Positions 5,668 to 22,537 of a stretch of 64,000 bases of DNA are shown here, in pieces (position 1 is the first letter of the stretch; every line of letters starts with the position of its first letter). The position numbers and the translations under genes were made by a program. The notes beneath the pieces are model-generated. The model made no database searches and had not been told where the DNA came from. It was given only the letters and a program-made list of their open reading frames with translations. The DNA is from a virus (Duplodnaviria; Caudoviricetes), in IMG/VR virus record IMGVR_UViG_3300028596_000001; one strand, written 5' to 3'.

Positions 5668-6794
5668 AAGAATTCCTCCAGAATAGCCCGTGCTGCCGCA
5701 GGATCGATATTGTGTTTAGCCAACTCCTCTTTAACAGAAGGGGCCTCAAACACCGAATCGGGCAAACTAGCCTTGGTTAAAGAAACACCGTTATACGTTG
5801 CAGTGCTGAACAGAGCCTCTTCAAGAATCTCATCCTCATTCTTTTCGTTCTGCGCTTTAAGCGTGAACTGAGGATACTCCTTACTAAGCATGCTGATTAC
5901 TGGGTTCACCACCATCGCACTACCACCCATCACACGGATGTGGGAATGACGGGGCAAATTGCGCTTCTTAATAAAGGCGTGGATATCAGTAATGAGGTCA
6001 TCAGCCGTGATCTCGGAATCTACGTTCATGGTGAGATAAGGCAAAGCGCCTTTGTTCTCCCAGAAGTTAGCTTCAAAGTATTCGGTCTTCAGATCGAAGT
6101 CGATGCAGTAACCGCCTTTCGGATGTTCTTCACCGTGTTTAGTCCGATCGAAACTACCGGAGGTATACAGTTTACCTTTTTGCACAGGGGTATGGATATG
6201 CCCAGCTAAGATGCAATACTTGGTGATGGACTCCCAGCGCTCCAGGTTGTGGCACTTGTGCCGTAACTTTGGCAGTAGCTGGAATTCAAACGCACCGTGG
6301 AAGTGGATCTGATCTACCTGCTCCAAACCTGCTTCATTTAATACCTGTACCGCTCGTTCCCAGATTTCATCAGGAGTCAGTGCCCCCATGTTGTCTGGGA
6401 CGTACATAACCGTCAATCCATCCAAATGCTCGTAGGTCACGATACTCAGGGTATCAATGTAACGAACATCCATGCCCTCAGGGGCTAGGTTAAGGAAGTG
6501 TCTAGGTTGTTCCCAGTCGTGGGAAGAAGTACCAGCCAACCACACGATCGTGATGTGCGGGTTGGCTTTGTACGCATATGCCAGGAAGGTCTTTGCCCAA
6601 TCGAAAACGACGTGGGTGTCGGTATGGGGAAGTTCTACCATACGCTCAAAGAAGTCACCGCCAAAGGTAACCATGTCCACCTTACCCAGATCATGGTCCT
6701 TACGCAGGAACACGGTCAGGTTATTCAAGACGTGTCCGGTAGGAGTCGTCTGGTGGAACGTGTGGTGGTCGGAACTCCAAAGCAGCCTAAACAT
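5664..6794 (-). CDS. sbcD: SbcD/Mre11-like metallophosphoesterase nuclease, about 376 aa
   Basis: Calcineurin-like motifs SSDHH, GGDFFE, GTSSHD and GHIH. Start moved from the track's 6911 to the ATG at 6794, which follows a GGGGAG RBS. Confidence 0.8.
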   Translation of the reverse strand: MFRLLWSSDHHTFHQTTPTGHVLNNLTVFLRKDHDLGKVDMVTFGGDFFERMVELPHTDTHVVFDWAKTFLAYAYKANPHITIVWLAGTSSHDWEQPRHFLNLAPEGMDVRYIDTLSIVTYEHLDGLTVMYVPDNMGALTPDEIWERAVQVLNEAGLEQVDQIHFHGAFEFQLLPKLRHKCHNLERWESITKYCILAGHIHTPVQKGKLYTSGSFDRTKHGEEHPKGGYCIDFDLKTEYFEANFWENKGALPYLTMNVDSEITADDLITDIHAFIKKRNLPRHSHIRVMGGSAMVVNPVISMLSKEYPQFTLKAQNEKNEDEILEEALFSTATYNGVSLTKASLPDSVFEAPSVKEELAKHNIDPAAARAILEEFL

Positions 6795-18847: not shown

Positions 18848-19849
18848 TTACAGCAGAACGCCGTTAGCGTCGGCACCAGCGCTCATGTCTTTCTGAGGGA
18901 CATACACGCCCTGGTTGATCGACTTGCGCTTGGTCAGCTCATCCAGTTGCTCTTGCAGTTTGGCGGTGGTTTCACCGTGGTCGAACAGCATGTGCAGTTG
19001 GGTGATCTCGCCTGGCAGGACGGTGTTCTTGGCGAAGACGCCAGTGGAACGCACCACCGCACCTGGGAAGGTAGCGCTGATGTTGTCCTTGTTGTCGAAC
19101 AGGCTGACGGTAGCAACCGGGGTGGCAGCTTTGTACTTGGTCGGATCATCGTAGAACGAGATGTGCGACAGGACCGGAGGAACACCGTAGAACTTGGAGC
19201 AGTTCAGGATGTTGGCCAGGTCGCTGATATCTTGCTCGTCGTTGTCCTGGCTGGCGAACAGGGAGAACAGGGAGATCTTGTTGATGACCTCTTTGTCGAT
19301 TTGACCGCGAGTCTTCTCTGGAATGTTGCGGAACTCCATGTAACCGATGGTGGAGTTCAGGTAGTTCGGCTGAGCCTGGATCGCCATCGACTGTACGGTA
19401 CGGATGGAGTTTTCCATTTCGACCTGAGTGGTGTGGTCGGTGATGATTGCCAGTACCACCGAATGGCCGTTCTGCTTCAGCCAGCGGACAACCAGGGTAG
19501 CCAGCATGGAGCCCGAACCACCGGCGCCGGAGCAGACCACGACGTTGAAGACGCCAGGGGTGTACTTGTTCATGACGCGTTCAACGAACGGCTGAGCTTC
19601 AGCGTAGTTGGTCGACTTGACCTTACCGGAACCCTGGGCCAGTTGTTGTGGATTGCCGGACGCAGGAACACGTTCCAGAGGGATACCCAGTTCTTCGGGC
19701 AGACGGTTGTTGCCGGACGCATCGAGAGCGACGTAGGAAGCGTTCTTCACGCGATCAGAAGGGCTGCTGGTCTTCAGCAGTTTGGCGATGTTGATACCAG
19801 CGCCGCCACAGACGATGAAGTTCAGTTCTTGCTTAGCAGTCATATCCAT
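18848..19849 (-). CDS. phuZ: PhuZ phage tubulin/FtsZ-family spindle protein, 333 aa
   Basis: Tubulin/FtsZ motifs CGGAGINI, GSGK and SGAGGSGS; C-terminal DANGVLL tail like PhuZ; early promoter upstream, terminator downstream. Confidence 0.93.
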   Translation of the reverse strand: MDMTAKQELNFIVCGGAGINIAKLLKTSSPSDRVKNASYVALDASGNNRLPEELGIPLERVPASGNPQQLAQGSGKVKSTNYAEAQPFVERVMNKYTPGVFNVVVCSGAGGSGSMLATLVVRWLKQNGHSVVLAIITDHTTQVEMENSIRTVQSMAIQAQPNYLNSTIGYMEFRNIPEKTRGQIDKEVINKISLFSLFASQDNDEQDISDLANILNCSKFYGVPPVLSHISFYDDPTKYKAATPVATVSLFDNKDNISATFPGAVVRSTGVFAKNTVLPGEITQLHMLFDHGETTAKLQEQLDELTKRKSINQGVYVPQKDMSAGADANGVLL

Positions 19850-19932: not shown

Positions 19933-19986
19933 AGTTATTGGGCTACATAACTTGGGCTCTTAGTGAAAATGCAAAAAAGAAAAGAC

Positions 19987-20020
19987 CCTACCTTATCCCC
20001 TATTAAAGGAATAAGGTAGG
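19987..20020 (-). terminator. Terminator closing the RNA cluster
   Basis: CCTACCTTAT/ATAAGGTAGG stem followed by TCTTTTCTTTTTT on the minus strand. Confidence 0.75.
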
Positions 20021-20027
20021 CACCAAG

Positions 20028-20130
20028 TGGTGTCGGTAAAAGCATGAGTACCAAAGACCGACACCAAGATAGGAACCCCCTTCCCTGATGAATTAAGCCG
20101 AACCCTAAAACGACTAAGTTCGGTCTTCAG
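20028..20130 (-). ncRNA. Two-hairpin structured module at the 3' end of the RNA cluster
   Basis: 10-bp perfect stem TGGTGTCGGT/ACCGACACCA (about 20028-20066) and stem GCCGAAC/GTTCGGT (about 20097-20124), just before the terminator. Confidence 0.35.
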
Positions 20131-20227
20131 TATAACATGTTTCCATAGTTGCAAAAAAATAAAGAATAGGCCCCACCCAATACTCCTAGACCAACTGTCA
20201 ATGACGGCTGGGATCAGAGTATTAGAT

Positions 20228-20373
20228 GAGGGGAGGTTTTCAGTGGCTGCCCTTACGGGGTCGCCCAACCAGTGCAACGAGGCAGACGAAAATACTGGTT
20301 GTTGCTTAAGGACCTCCTAACCTAAGCTGGAGCAGCGCAGCAGGTCGAAGATAAAGCAAGGATGGCATCCCCT
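20228..20373 (-). ncRNA. Unidentified structured RNA, about 146 nt
   Basis: GAGGGGA/TCCCCTC ends, GGAGGT/ACCTCC, CAACCAGT/ACTGGTTG and a CCC-GTAA-GGG GNRA hairpin on the minus strand. Confidence 0.5.
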
Positions 20374-20476
20374 CAAAGTCATACTGCCGGCCAGGCTGCC
20401 TGAACTAAACGAGAGGATACCTGATGAACAAGCAATGGGGTGTGCTTATTCACCTACACGGCCGCTAGACCATGTT

Positions 20477-20565
20477 TGGAGGGGAGCTGGTCGGACTCGA
20501 ACCGACGACCTATGGGTGAGGGACTAGTATCACCCACCGCGCTAACCAACTGCGCTACAACTCCC
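20477..20565 (-). ncRNA. tRNA-like RNA with an enlarged anticodon arm (no assignable anticodon)
   Basis: GGGAGTT/AGCTCCC acceptor, D arm AGCGCAGTTGGTTAGCGC, T arm GTCGG-TTCGAGT-CCGAC and encoded CCA, but the anticodon arm is GTGGGTGA-TACTAGTCCC-TCACCCAT (26 nt instead of 17). Confidence 0.8.
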
Positions 20566-20570
20566 ACATT

Positions 20571-20646
20571 TGGCTCCGTAACCAGGACTCGAACCTGGGA
20601 CCCACGCATTAACAGTGCGTTGCTCTACCGACTGAGCTATCACGGA
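20571..20646 (-). tRNA. trnN: tRNA-Asn (GTT)
   Basis: Canonical 76-nt cloverleaf TCCGTGA...TTACGGA-G-CCA; anticodon loop CT-GTT-AA. Confidence 0.97.
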
Positions 20647-20655
20647 AGAAATCTT

Positions 20656-20780
20656 GACGGTCCAATTCGGACTTTTACCGCACTTACACAAGAGCTTGCG
20701 GCTCAAGGGAGCCCGACCGTCCGGGCGCCGAGTGCTTTCTTTACCTACCAGGGTTCCTTGATCAATGGTCCTTTGTAAGT
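20656..20780 (-). ncRNA. Pseudoknotted structured RNA between tRNA-Trp and tRNA-Asn
   Basis: ACTTACA/TGTAAGT, nested TCAAGGGA(G)CCC/GGGTTCCTTGA, and a crossing GACGGTC/GACCGTC helix. Confidence 0.5.
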
Positions 20781-20785
20781 TAATG

Positions 20786-20861
20786 TGGCAGTCCAGTCAG
20801 GAGTCGAACCTGAAACCTACGGCTTTGGAGGCCGTTGCTCTGCCAGTTGAGCTACTGAACC
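20786..20861 (-). tRNA. trnW: tRNA-Trp (CCA)
   Basis: Canonical cloverleaf GGTTCAG...CTGGACT-G-CCA; anticodon arm ACGGC-CTCCAAA-GCCGT. Confidence 0.97.
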
Positions 20862-20942
20862 AAATAGGTCCTTCCCGGGAGGGAAGGAAGGGTGCAACCG
20901 GGTTTCCTGCTTCAGTGTATATTTCTTTACAAACCTTTTAGC

Positions 20943-21027
20943 TGGGGGAGGTGGATTTCGGACCCTACCACCATTTCACACGGTACTAGAAAATTCCCGT
21001 GTGGAGTTTAAGCTTAACTTACCCCCC
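20943..21027 (-). ncRNA. Degenerate cloverleaf (tRNA-like) RNA ending in CCA
   Basis: GGGGGGT/ACCTCCC 7-bp acceptor followed by CCA, a GTT/AAC mini D arm, CACACGG/CCGTGTG stem with a 13-nt loop, and a T-loop-like GGG-TCCGAAA-TCC. Confidence 0.55.
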
Positions 21028-21034
21028 GTTTACA

Positions 21035-21135
21035 CTGACGCGATTGCGGCGAGCCGACCTGACCGTCGGCTAATACCAGGATAAAGATCCCGGTTCGTTG
21101 CGGCTGTAGGAAGCCGTTGAGAAACCTACAGTCGG
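21035..21135 (-). ncRNA. Multi-hairpin structured module
   Basis: AGCCGAC/GTCGGCT, GGAT/ATCC and GGCTGTAGG/CCTACAGTC stems filling the space between two tRNA-like RNAs. Confidence 0.4.
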
Positions 21136-21142
21136 AACAAGA

Positions 21143-21282
21143 CAGAGAGTGCACGATTCGAACGTGCGGACCCACATCCCGTAAGTTGCAGATAATGGGT
21201 ACATCCGGTTTCTACGCCCCAACCACGCCGTGGCTAGGTTAAGCGTACCACCAGACTCCTTAAACCACTCGGACAACTCTCT
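21143..21282 (-). ncRNA. tRNA-Ser-type scaffold with a long hairpin inserted in the anticodon loop and an extended variable arm (140 nt)
   Basis: AGAGAGT/ACTCTCT acceptor plus G discriminator, Ser-type D arm TCCGAGTGGTTTAAGGA, T arm GCACG-TTCGAAT-CGTGC, anticodon stem TCTGG/CCGGA enclosing 42 nt; no encoded CCA. Confidence 0.8.
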
Positions 21283-21288
21283 AGAATA

Positions 21289-21365
21289 TGGCGCGACCAG
21301 AGGGACTCGAACCCTCGACCATCCGCGTGACAGGCGGATATTCTAACCGGCTGAACTATGGCCGC
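21289..21365 (-). tRNA. trnD: tRNA-Asp (GTC)
   Basis: Canonical 77-nt cloverleaf GCGGCCA...TGGTCGC-G-CCA; anticodon loop CT-GTC-AC. Confidence 0.97.
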
Positions 21366-21413
21366 GAAAAACTGCTTTGTTACATATGATACAAACACCG
21401 AGTAAAAAGTTAA

Positions 21414-21614
21414 GGAGGGGTGGATTCGGATTGTTACACCCTAGCCCGTCCCCTCCTGTCCTCTGGATCACGTAAACGAGGTGCACCTCCGATACGTGTA
21501 AAGAGCCGCCTCAATAAGCTTGTTAGGATCCGGGCCTGCATCCTTGGGAGGACGGAGGGGCGGAAACGAGCAAGGGTAAGCTTATCGTGACTAAGGGCGT
21601 TTGACATGGCCCCC
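21414..21614 (-). ncRNA. Unidentified long-stem structured RNA, about 200 nt
   Basis: About 16-bp helix CCG(T)CCCCTCC(T)GTCCTC / GAGGACGGAGGGGCGG; 5' G-run; 3' motif TCCGAATCCACCCCTCC shared with the 20943-21027 element. Confidence 0.5.
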
Positions 21615-21766
21615 ATAGGTTTAGCTTAGAGAAACTTGTCATCGTAACTCATCGCATCATAGCAATCCGGCTCCACCTTAAGGTTCCGGATGATCTCTCA
21701 AGGAGATTCGGTTTAGGTGTCGAGAAAGCACACCTGTTGTATATAATGGAATTATGCAGTAACCAA

Positions 21767-22537
21767 TTAATTTTTTCTGGTCATCGGCATTATGCTCCAG
21801 GTACCATTTTCTTGACTTAATGAAAAAGCTGTACAGTCGCTATAGGAAATCAGCTGACATCCAGCCTGCACAGTTCTGAGTTCGTAGTAATCGAACTCAC
21901 CGACGCCCAGCTTAAAAATGGGCTTAAACCCGTCTGTAGTGATAAGCCCGTAAATAACACCGGCGGCATGCAGTGTTCCGAGTAAACCATTGTGTCGCGG
22001 TTTCTCGGTTATGTGTAGCCAGTACGGTCCTTTTGAGATAAACTCGGCTTCGGTTATTGCGGTCATTACAGAACGGATTACTTCATGGTGTTGCTCAGTG
22101 AGGCCACTTCTGTTTGGTATGTTGAAGAATGTCTGTGGTTCGCTACCCTGGATAGACCCGCCATGCAACACACTGCGCATCTCCTCGGACATCCCAGGAT
22201 AACGGAATGCGGGATCGCGGTCTTCAGGTTTAACTCCAAAAGCTTCACGGAGTGGCTGCATGACCGTCTCTGTTGCTTGTGCGGCAGCTACAGCCCTGGG
22301 GATGCCTGTCTCCAGTTCGTGCAGCGTACGGTCGAGCAACAACACCCCTTGGTCGTTGAGAACGATTACGTCACCATCGATGTTGACGTGCCGGCTTTTG
22401 TAATCACCCAAAGCCTCTACAACCAAACGTGGCGAACCATTTTCGTTTTTAGGGTATACCCCGAACTGTACCGCCCCGTCAAAGGTAATGATCTTGACCC
22501 CTAAATCCGGTCTGATAACCTTTACGATAATGCCCAT
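21767..22537 (-). CDS. Hypothetical protein, 256 aa; N-terminal domain paralogous to the upstream 77-aa protein
   Basis: ORF start overlaps the upstream stop (TAATG). Confidence 0.7.
   Translation of the reverse strand: MGIIVKVIRPDLGVKIITFDGAVQFGVYPKNENGSPRLVVEALGDYKSRHVNIDGDVIVLNDQGVLLLDRTLHELETGIPRAVAAAQATETVMQPLREAFGVKPEDRDPAFRYPGMSEEMRSVLHGGSIQGSEPQTFFNIPNRSGLTEQHHEVIRSVMTAITEAEFISKGPYWLHITEKPRHNGLLGTLHAAGVIYGLITTDGFKPIFKLGVGEFDYYELRTVQAGCQLISYSDCTAFSLSQENGTWSIMPMTRKN

Follow-up and report, generated by a model that had tools for sequence, protein, structure and literature searches.

RNAC and RNAD of phage T4 (species 1 and 2) are small RNAs that are not tRNAs but are co-encoded with the phage's tRNAs (PMC3014915; PMC9697503). 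Here we describe a more elaborate RNA locus, from an uncultured jumbo phage that was found in soil metagenomes (IMG/VR record IMGVR_UViG_3300028596_000001). We analyzed a stretch of 64,000 nucleotides, which we will call the window. The locus is a protein-free array of about 1.8 kb on the minus strand (21750 to 19981), just upstream of phuZ. It contains canonical tRNA-Asp, tRNA-Trp, and tRNA-Asn, three tRNA-shaped RNAs whose anticodon loop is not usable, and five or more additional structured modules. The T4 RNAs are matured along with the tRNAs, and RNAC is about 140 nt long. Compared by description, the two loci are alike in having non-tRNA small RNAs in a phage tRNA region. But in the array, there are RNAs with a full tRNA body and the features of tRNA-Ser or tRNA-His, the set of conserved RNAs is much larger, and the phages belong to a jumbo clade of the nucleus-forming type.

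Y RNAs, such as YrlA, are partners of Ro60/Rsr and are also known in phages. YrlA and other Y RNAs (RF02553) have in common with the tRNA-shaped RNAs of the array that they do not decode, that they have a tRNA-like domain, and that a long stem (protein-binding in the Y RNAs) takes the place of the anticodon arm. However, YrlA has a permuted topology, with its ends in the long stem and its acceptor closed by a loop, while the array RNAs end at the acceptor. The match to YrlA in the array is just 22 bits (the gathering score is 69), and it spans both tRNA-Asn and the His-type RNA that is described below. Natural examples of tRNA-like processing include the tRNA-miRNA units of MHV68, the mascRNA of MALAT1, and the tRNA punctuation of mitochondrial transcripts; there, as in the array, tRNA-shaped units bound other RNAs within one transcript. 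Finally, in engineered tRNA scaffolds, a tRNA body carries a foreign hairpin instead of its anticodon stem-loop. This method is in use (PMC3753655). The scaffolds are artificial and the other examples are eukaryotic or viral nuclear systems. By analogy, we propose that two of the tRNA-shaped RNAs, which we will call tRNA-chassis RNAs, are a natural counterpart of the engineered scaffold. In the literature, we found no description of such families of anticodon-less, tRNA-shaped phage RNAs; a large survey mentions only unspecified "tRNA-like" candidates in viruses (PMC10690425).

Our favored reading, in which we have somewhat more confidence than doubt, is that the array would be a polycistronic operon of non-coding RNAs with tRNA-type processing, and that its stable, non-decoding chassis RNAs would display their inserts or bodies, or both, to a partner. 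The operon is probably expressed early, and the best reading of its distribution is that it is specific to one clade of uncultured jumbo phages that encode PhuZ. What we show directly is that the RNAs are conserved and covary, that the chassis RNAs have lost any anticodon that could be read, and that tRNA-shaped units alternate with other modules.

In the window, the order of the array is leader RNA, tRNA-Asp and the Ser-type RNA, a module of hairpins, the RNA that we will call mimic 2, a spacer, tRNA-Trp, another module, tRNA-Asn and the His-type RNA, and the 3' RNA (Table 1). Thus, tRNA-shaped units (Asp, Ser-type, mimic 2, Trp, Asn, and His-type) alternate with other folded modules, and the tRNAs and the non-canonical RNAs share one location and one strand. 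An earlier note on this DNA had described the three canonical tRNAs, on which ARAGORN and Rfam agree (66-70 bits), as well as three tRNA-shaped RNAs, which we found at the positions given there (mimic 2 is only loosely tRNA-like). It had left the strand implicit, and it had also claimed that there is no credible open reading frame (ORF) between phuZ and the gene at 21767, and this still holds: the longest same-strand ORF in the array has 94 amino acids (19993-20277) and is interrupted by stops in all relatives, so it is not kept as an ORF.

Table 1. Features of the RNA array, from its head to its 3' end (window coordinates).
Feature	Coordinates	Strand	Support or conservation
Promoter-like motif CCATTATATACAAC, array head	21736..21749	-	Conserved
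Leader RNA ("U RNA"), ~370 nt	21367..21735	-	10 phages, 60-73% identity
tRNA-Asp(GUC), CCA encoded	21289..21365	-	ARAGORN; Rfam tRNA, 68.3 bits
Ser-type (class II) tRNA-chassis RNA, 141 nt	21142..21282	-	Minimum free energy folding, covariation, model R1
Three-hairpin module, including the GCCGAC-GGUCAG-GUCGGC hairpin	21028..21131	-	Aligned in 8 phages
Mimic 2, minimal cloverleaf-like RNA	20943..21027	-	Conserved in L083 (80%) and L085
Spacer with GC-rich hairpin (20888-20869)	20862..20942	-	Conserved only with L083
tRNA-Trp(CCA), CCA encoded	20786..20861	-	ARAGORN; Rfam, 66.1 bits
Trp-Asn spacer module, 135-140 nt, with GGUAAAAGUCCGAA block	20647..20785	-	Covariation-supported
tRNA-Asn(GUU), CCA encoded	20571..20646	-	ARAGORN; Rfam, 69.6 bits
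His-type tRNA-chassis RNA, 84 nt	20482..20565	-	Rfam tRNA, covariation, model R2
3' RNA ("tail RNA"), ~325 nt	20153..20478	-	9 phages; invariant ACAUGGUCUAGCGGCCGUGUA hairpin at its start
Second unit: promoter-like TTGCAA...TGTTATACT and small RNA of ~130-150 nt	19977..20152	-	Ends at terminator 20020-19987

We identified 13 related uncultured jumbo phages that have the same gene-free array and whose PhuZ proteins are 54-84% identical to that of the window. These relatives (with handles such as L079) were gathered from a PhuZ search of IMG/VR, from two exact-pattern scans, and from the contigs behind PhuZ homologues. In every one of the 13, a gene-free gap of 1.6-2.7 kb lies directly upstream of phuZ. 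When we compared the modules of the window to these gaps with BLAST, nearly all of them were conserved, at 60-90% identity. The set of canonical tRNAs differs widely between phages (it includes Asp, Trp, Asn, Tyr, Gln, Leu, and Ser), while the constant parts are the leader and the 3' RNA, along with the Ser-type and His-type elements. In other words, the non-canonical RNAs are more widely retained across the clade than the canonical tRNAs are. In the complete 229-kb genome of one relative, all five matches to the tRNA model fall within the array.

The Ser-type RNA keeps the 7-bp acceptor stem, the T arm with GUUCGAAUC, and the long variable arm (often enlarged) of a class II tRNA, and its elbow nucleotides (G18G19 and the T-loop) are intact. 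It also has other features of tRNA-Ser: a 3-bp D stem with a GAGUGGUU-type loop, G2:C71, and C11:G24. Its 5' half is a common tRNA-Ser sequence of phages, with 75 exact matches in IMG/VR. (A 92-nt "tRNA-Gly(ccc)" that ARAGORN reports at 21232-21141 is an artefact of this larger element.) In the window, a 42-nt hairpin (21250-21209) stands in place of the anticodon loop. Across the family, the anticodon stem runs on, with no loop, into a hairpin of 35-52 nt that sits on a purine-rich internal loop.

The Ser-type element is present in 12 phages, with one copy in each. Minimum free energy folding gave a class II cloverleaf for the window and for most of the 10 relatives that we folded. RNAalifold (alignment A1) predicted 26 core pairs, 12 of them with compensatory changes, which are located in the D stem, the base of the anticodon stem, the base of the variable arm, and the T stem. 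Given a covariance model for this family (R1), the Ser-type elements of the 12 phages score 92-133 bits, while real class II tRNAs from these arrays score 49-60 bits, which is a gap of over 30 bits. All of the inserts (11/11) fold as a single end-to-end hairpin between conserved 5' UGGAU and 3' (C/U)AUGAAA flanks, which lie opposite one another and form a 4x4 internal loop rich in purines; the loop is UGGUA/UAGAAA instead in two phages, that of the window and L079. By eye, the GGAU/UGAA loop fits none of the kink-turn, hammerhead, or bulge-helix-bulge patterns. Since the 3' flank is similar to the 3' portion of a tRNA-Ser(UGA) loop (it is exactly CUUGAAA in L084), the element probably arose from a tRNA-Ser by an insertion 5' of position 32.

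The His-type RNA has a class I body with canonical D and T arms and elbow nucleotides, and its acceptor is extended to 8 bp by G-1:C73. An extra G-1 that is paired with C73 is the hallmark of tRNA-His. In the window, an 8-bp stem that carries a loop of 10 nt (20537-20512) takes the place of the anticodon arm. ARAGORN labels this RNA as an 84-nt "tRNA-Ile(gat)" (20564-20481), and it scores 55 bits against Rfam's tRNA model, which is above the gathering score, with 15 nt inserted into the anticodon loop. The same model recovers 11 further elements of 72-89 nt, for a total of 12 copies in 10 phages. G-1:C73 is present in 12/12 homologues. None of the 12 has GUG in an anticodon register, they share no anticodon register, and there is no true tRNA-His in any of the arrays that we examined.

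Of the cells in the alignment of the His-type elements (A2), 92.8% are paired, and both sides have changed in 15 of the 22 pairs. These values were reached by 0 of 500 shuffles, and slid controls were 37-53% paired. With a model for this family (R2), the His-type elements score 68-89 bits, while real tRNAs score at most 58, so the gap is roughly 10 bits or more. The His-type inserts are longer hairpins of several discrete types, and some are better conserved than phuZ itself. For instance, L085 and L087, with phuZ DNA that is 70% identical, share one type at 100% identity, and another type has a 21-nt core that is identical between L081 and L088 (66% for phuZ DNA). A variant without a D arm is found in L079 (4289-4364) and L084 (4423-4498), directly before the 3' RNA; besides a T arm and an acceptor of 7 bp, it has two 6-bp hairpins, of which the first has a loop of 3 nt and the second a UAGC tetraloop.

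Relative to canonical tRNA-Ser and tRNA-His (RF00005), the Ser-type and His-type RNAs share the acceptor, D, and T arms, the elbow, and the long variable arm (Ser) or G-1:C73 (His). But neither family has the canonical 5-bp stem and the 7-nt loop that contains U33 and the anticodon, no anticodon is conserved, and the anticodon arm is 9-45 nt longer. The anticodons that ARAGORN calls are inconsistent among orthologues (Ile-GAU, Ile-AAU, Gly-ACC, or Ser-AGA). Also, CCA is often not encoded: it is missing directly after the discriminator in 8 of 11 Ser-type copies and in about half of the His-type copies, while the three canonical tRNAs of the window all encode it.

The canonical tRNA content of these arrays shifts quickly between relatives, as would be expected if the look-alikes were decaying pseudogenes in a tRNA array with fast turnover. 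Degenerate copies do exist: the anticodon stem of the Ser-type copy in L086 is broken, and the acceptor has two mismatches in four of the His-type copies. But orthologues of these elements persist down to PhuZ identities of 54-62%, all of the tRNA-body stems that we tested show compensatory substitutions, G-1:C73 is invariant, and some inserts are more conserved than phuZ DNA. Furthermore, L079, L084, L085, and L089 carry an intact tRNA-Ser(GCU) besides the Ser-type element, so that element is not a dying only copy. Because of the covariation (which carries most of the weight), the coexisting intact paralogues, and the conservation of inserts, decay is excluded as the main explanation, and we give it almost no credence. 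The earlier note had argued that change focused on the anticodon arm reflects selection instead of decay. The presence of the Ser-type in 12 phages and of the His-type in 10, the compensatory changes in their acceptor, D, and T stems, their separation from real tRNAs by R1 and R2, and inserts that are 100% identical between phages with 70% identity in phuZ DNA all agree with that argument.

If the inserts were introns, as the note had also suggested, then their removal should yield a decoding tRNA-Ser (with anticodon AGA or UGA) from the Ser-type element and another tRNA from the His-type element. In the window, the 3' strand of the anticodon stem is preceded by the 7 nt GUAGAAA, or U33-AGA-A37, and the CUUGAAA of L084 would be a perfect tRNA-Ser(UGA) loop. 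However, only 5 of the 11 Ser-type homologues would regain U33 (the position would be A, G, or C in the rest), and the His-type inserts have no shared anticodon register, so removing the insert does not give a canonical loop in all orthologues. Nor did we find a route for splicing. The inserts are far too short to be group I introns, we saw no bulge-helix-bulge motif by eye, and the complete genome of the relative contains no tRNA splicing endonuclease (PF01974), RtcB (PF01139), or Rnl2-type RNA ligase (PF09414). Given the strong covariation and the conservation of inserts as well, we consider intron-bearing pre-tRNAs to be very improbable.

Another explanation is that the tRNA body is what has been selected. 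Seryl-tRNA synthetase (SerRS), which reads the long variable arm, and histidyl-tRNA synthetase (HisRS), which reads G-1:C73, need little or no anticodon information, and both families of chassis RNAs derive from the corresponding types of tRNA. The RNAs might be decoys or sponges that soak up a host factor that reads the shape or identity of a tRNA, not its anticodon, in which case the insert would merely abolish decoding and remove the target of anticodon nucleases. Candidates for the factor include SerRS, HisRS, RNase P, or a defense nuclease or nucleotidyltransferase toxin that acts on acceptor ends or on class II tRNAs. The invariance of G-1:C73, the class II features of the D arm and variable arm that are kept in 12 phages, the intact G18G19 and T-loop nucleotides of the elbow, and the free variation of the Ser-type insert sequences are all consistent with this idea. 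But the frequent absence of an encoded CCA is not, and decoys would leave the strict conservation of some inserts unexplained. There is also no known defense target in the host. Anticodon nucleases proper, which the note had named as possible targets, are unlikely because the loop that they recognize is absent. Overall, we view decoys of the tRNA body as a rather unlikely explanation.

The layout of the array bears on a simpler possibility, which is that the tRNA-shaped elements are just cis-acting processing signals that excise their large neighbor RNAs and have no function of their own. The alternation of tRNA-shaped units and other modules fits with this, and so does the context of the 3' RNA, which is always directly preceded by such a unit, with (C)CAAACAUGG at the junction. 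The preceding unit can be a His-type element, the variant without a D arm (L079 and L084), a real tRNA-Gln (L082), or a bare acceptor-type minihelix (L086). But a processing signal requires only the acceptor/T minihelix, and yet the D arms, elbow, variable arms, and insert hairpins covary or are conserved, and some inserts are identical across divergent phages. These observations make pure punctuation improbable.

We return to the proposal of an operon with tRNA-chassis RNAs. The host's tRNA-maturation enzymes would recognize every tRNA-shaped unit, with RNase P cleaving at the 5' ends, followed by trimming of the 3' ends and repair of CCA. Since the tRNA-shaped units alternate with the other modules, they would punctuate the transcript and free each RNA. 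The Ser-type and His-type elements would then be stable RNAs whose "top half" (the acceptor, T, and D arms) provides processing, folding, and resistance to nucleases, while the hairpin in place of the anticodon loop would be the selected functional part and would bind a protein or RNA partner. We infer the processing by RNase P, the stability, the partner, and the timing of expression from the features of the RNAs. Of the functions that had been listed in the earlier note, scaffolds processed by RNase P and CCA addition fit best; pre-tRNAs with introns are disfavored, and decoys for anticodon nucleases are a weak fit. In the complete genome of the relative, we found no CCA-adding enzyme, no Ro60/TROVE protein (PF05731), and no peptidyl-tRNA hydrolase (Pth).

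Several observations weigh against this proposal. Real tRNAs alone could punctuate the transcript, as the tRNA-Gln before the 3' RNA of L082 illustrates. The identity features that are kept in the Ser-type and His-type RNAs hint that the body, and not the insert, may be the functional part. Our search of the proteins that adjoin the arrays gave no partner protein. The internal loop of the window's own Ser-type element is unlike that of most relatives. And although all 11 Ser-type insert hairpins have negative z-scores, these are individually modest (mean -1.25), and the insert sequences diverge strongly between subgroups of phages, so any sequence-specific partner of the Ser-type inserts would be hypothetical.

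Using models R1 and R2, we found no members of either family in the nearest cultured phages (FishSpeaker, RisingSun, EL, and vB_PQ1), and a nucleotide search of 50,697 phage records matched only the tRNAs. The public sequencing runs that contain DNA from the array are soil and wastewater metagenomes, and no RNA dataset was listed among the runs that contain it. When we searched this region of the window with Rfam at E values of up to 10, only the tRNA family matched, apart from three sub-threshold chance matches in the array (to YrlA and to an antisense plastid 5' UTR family, all far below the gathering scores). At the gathering scores, the arrays of 12 relatives also matched tRNA only, with no GOLLD, ROOL, RNase P RNA, or intron family, and ARAGORN found no tmRNA in the window or in the relatives' arrays. 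The note had proposed such comparisons as checks: apart from tRNA, the modules match no Rfam family, and the relatives' arrays and the RNAalifold alignments show both conservation and covariation. The further folded modules that it had pointed out are borne out by covariation, namely the leader, the three-hairpin module, the Trp-Asn spacer module, the 3' RNA, and a terminal small RNA.

These other modules include two large RNAs. For the leader RNA, RNAalifold predicted 67 pairs, 37 of which have compensatory changes (alignment A5), and there was no match in Rfam. Alignment A5 starts with a TATATAC block that is nearly invariant in 10 phages. The CCATTATATACAAC motif at the head of the array resembles the early promoter of phiKZ and is a putative promoter. 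The 3' RNA has 62 predicted pairs, 29 of which are compensatory, and it ends with a long hairpin and U7. In both the leader (21367-21460) and the 3' RNA (20250-20300), a conserved stem pairs a Shine-Dalgarno-like AGGAGG with CCUCC(UUA), a stretch that resembles the 3' end of 16S rRNA. Downstream of the 3' RNA, the second unit is 79-86% identical in L079 and L085, with a conserved TTTTTTGCAAC block; the first T's of its TTGCAA...TGTTATACT motif overlap the preceding U-run.

Among the smaller modules, the three-hairpin module has compensatory changes in all three stems across the 8 phages, and a 25-nt block of it is 100% identical in L079. The module between tRNA-Trp and tRNA-Asn is found in 8 phages, with 67-87% identity, at varying positions in the array. 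By eye, its conserved block GUGCGGUAAAAGUCCGAA looks like a mixture of conserved regions of RNase P RNA, which is probably a coincidence, with no match to the models; we dropped the idea that GUGCGGUAAAAGUCCG in this module corresponds to those regions because no RNase P model matched. The hairpin at 20888-20869 is a terminator-like match without a proper U-tract. Mimic 2 is the weakest of the three look-alikes and is tRNA-shaped only loosely: it is a three-way junction that is closed by a stem of 6 bp and has a 7-bp hairpin with a 13-nt loop and a 5-bp hairpin with a T-loop-like loop of 13 nt. Its central hairpin shows compensatory changes, its conservation is limited to L083 and L085, and Rfam's tRNA model does not recognize it. 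A search of the window for complements of the loops, which could be antisense targets, gave one extra match, an exact 12-mer at 6483; we judged it to be due to chance because it lies in a minus-strand ORF and hence has the same sense as the RNA.

According to the earlier note, a single terminator closes the array. We found two terminator-like sites: the long hairpin with U7 that ends at 20153, and an intrinsic terminator at 20020-19987. The U-runs of both sites are followed at once by TTTTTTGCA (20159-20149 and 19981-19971), and 9 relatives have also kept this sequence after the first terminator. This sequence may be a phage-specific promoter or a signal at terminator-promoter junctions. The note had also treated the CTAG in the altered anticodon regions as a clue. 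But CTAG occurs 7 times in the array, versus 6.8 expected from base composition, and it is missing from most of the homologous inserts, so we regard it as incidental. The density of CTAG is 3.97 per kb in the array and 1.29 per kb in the rest of the window (about 3.9 per kb would be expected). This roughly three-fold depletion outside the array would fit with selection against the tetranucleotide in coding DNA or with avoidance of restriction by the host.

The array is flanked by phuZ (18848-19849, minus strand), whose product shares 41% identity with the PhuZ that is annotated in Shewanella phage FishSpeaker, and by an ORF of 256 amino acids on the same strand (21767-22537), for which we found no homologues. 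Gene callers left the homologous gaps empty, except for insertions of HNH endonucleases and one 82-amino-acid call. Searches of the adjoining proteins against Pfam gave nothing informative except for HNH endonucleases. One such ORF lies inside the array of L088 (3507-4292) and has weak matches to HNH_3 and NUMOD4; another lies directly upstream of the array of L081 (2529-3377) and matches HNH_3 only, with 21.3 bits, which is under the cutoff of 24.8 bits. These ORFs suggest that homing endonucleases move in and out of the locus.

More tentatively, it is possible that these RNAs represent an undescribed class of regulatory or counter-defense RNAs of phages: natural tRNA scaffolds with exchangeable hairpin cargoes that would act on a host factor. 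Since the Ser-type and His-type identity elements that they retain function independently of the anticodon, they might even be charged. The factor might be a defense enzyme that recognizes the tRNA body, a synthetase, or an RNA-binding protein, and further new structured RNAs would come from the same early operon.

The tRNA genes of phages are usually explained by codon supply or by the replacement of tRNAs that are cut by host defenses. In this clade, the RNAs that are best conserved within the tRNA locus are unable to decode, and the look-alikes retain exactly the parts of a tRNA that are read by processing enzymes and by anticodon-independent synthetases. Annotation pipelines now label them as tRNA-Ile or tRNA-Gly, or overlook them. 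If they are expressed, they would be a new functional class of phage RNA, along with four or five further structured RNAs, and they would provide a natural precedent for the design of tRNA scaffolds. They would also give a handle on a 50-year-old question, that of the T4-type "stable RNAs" in the tRNA clusters of phages.

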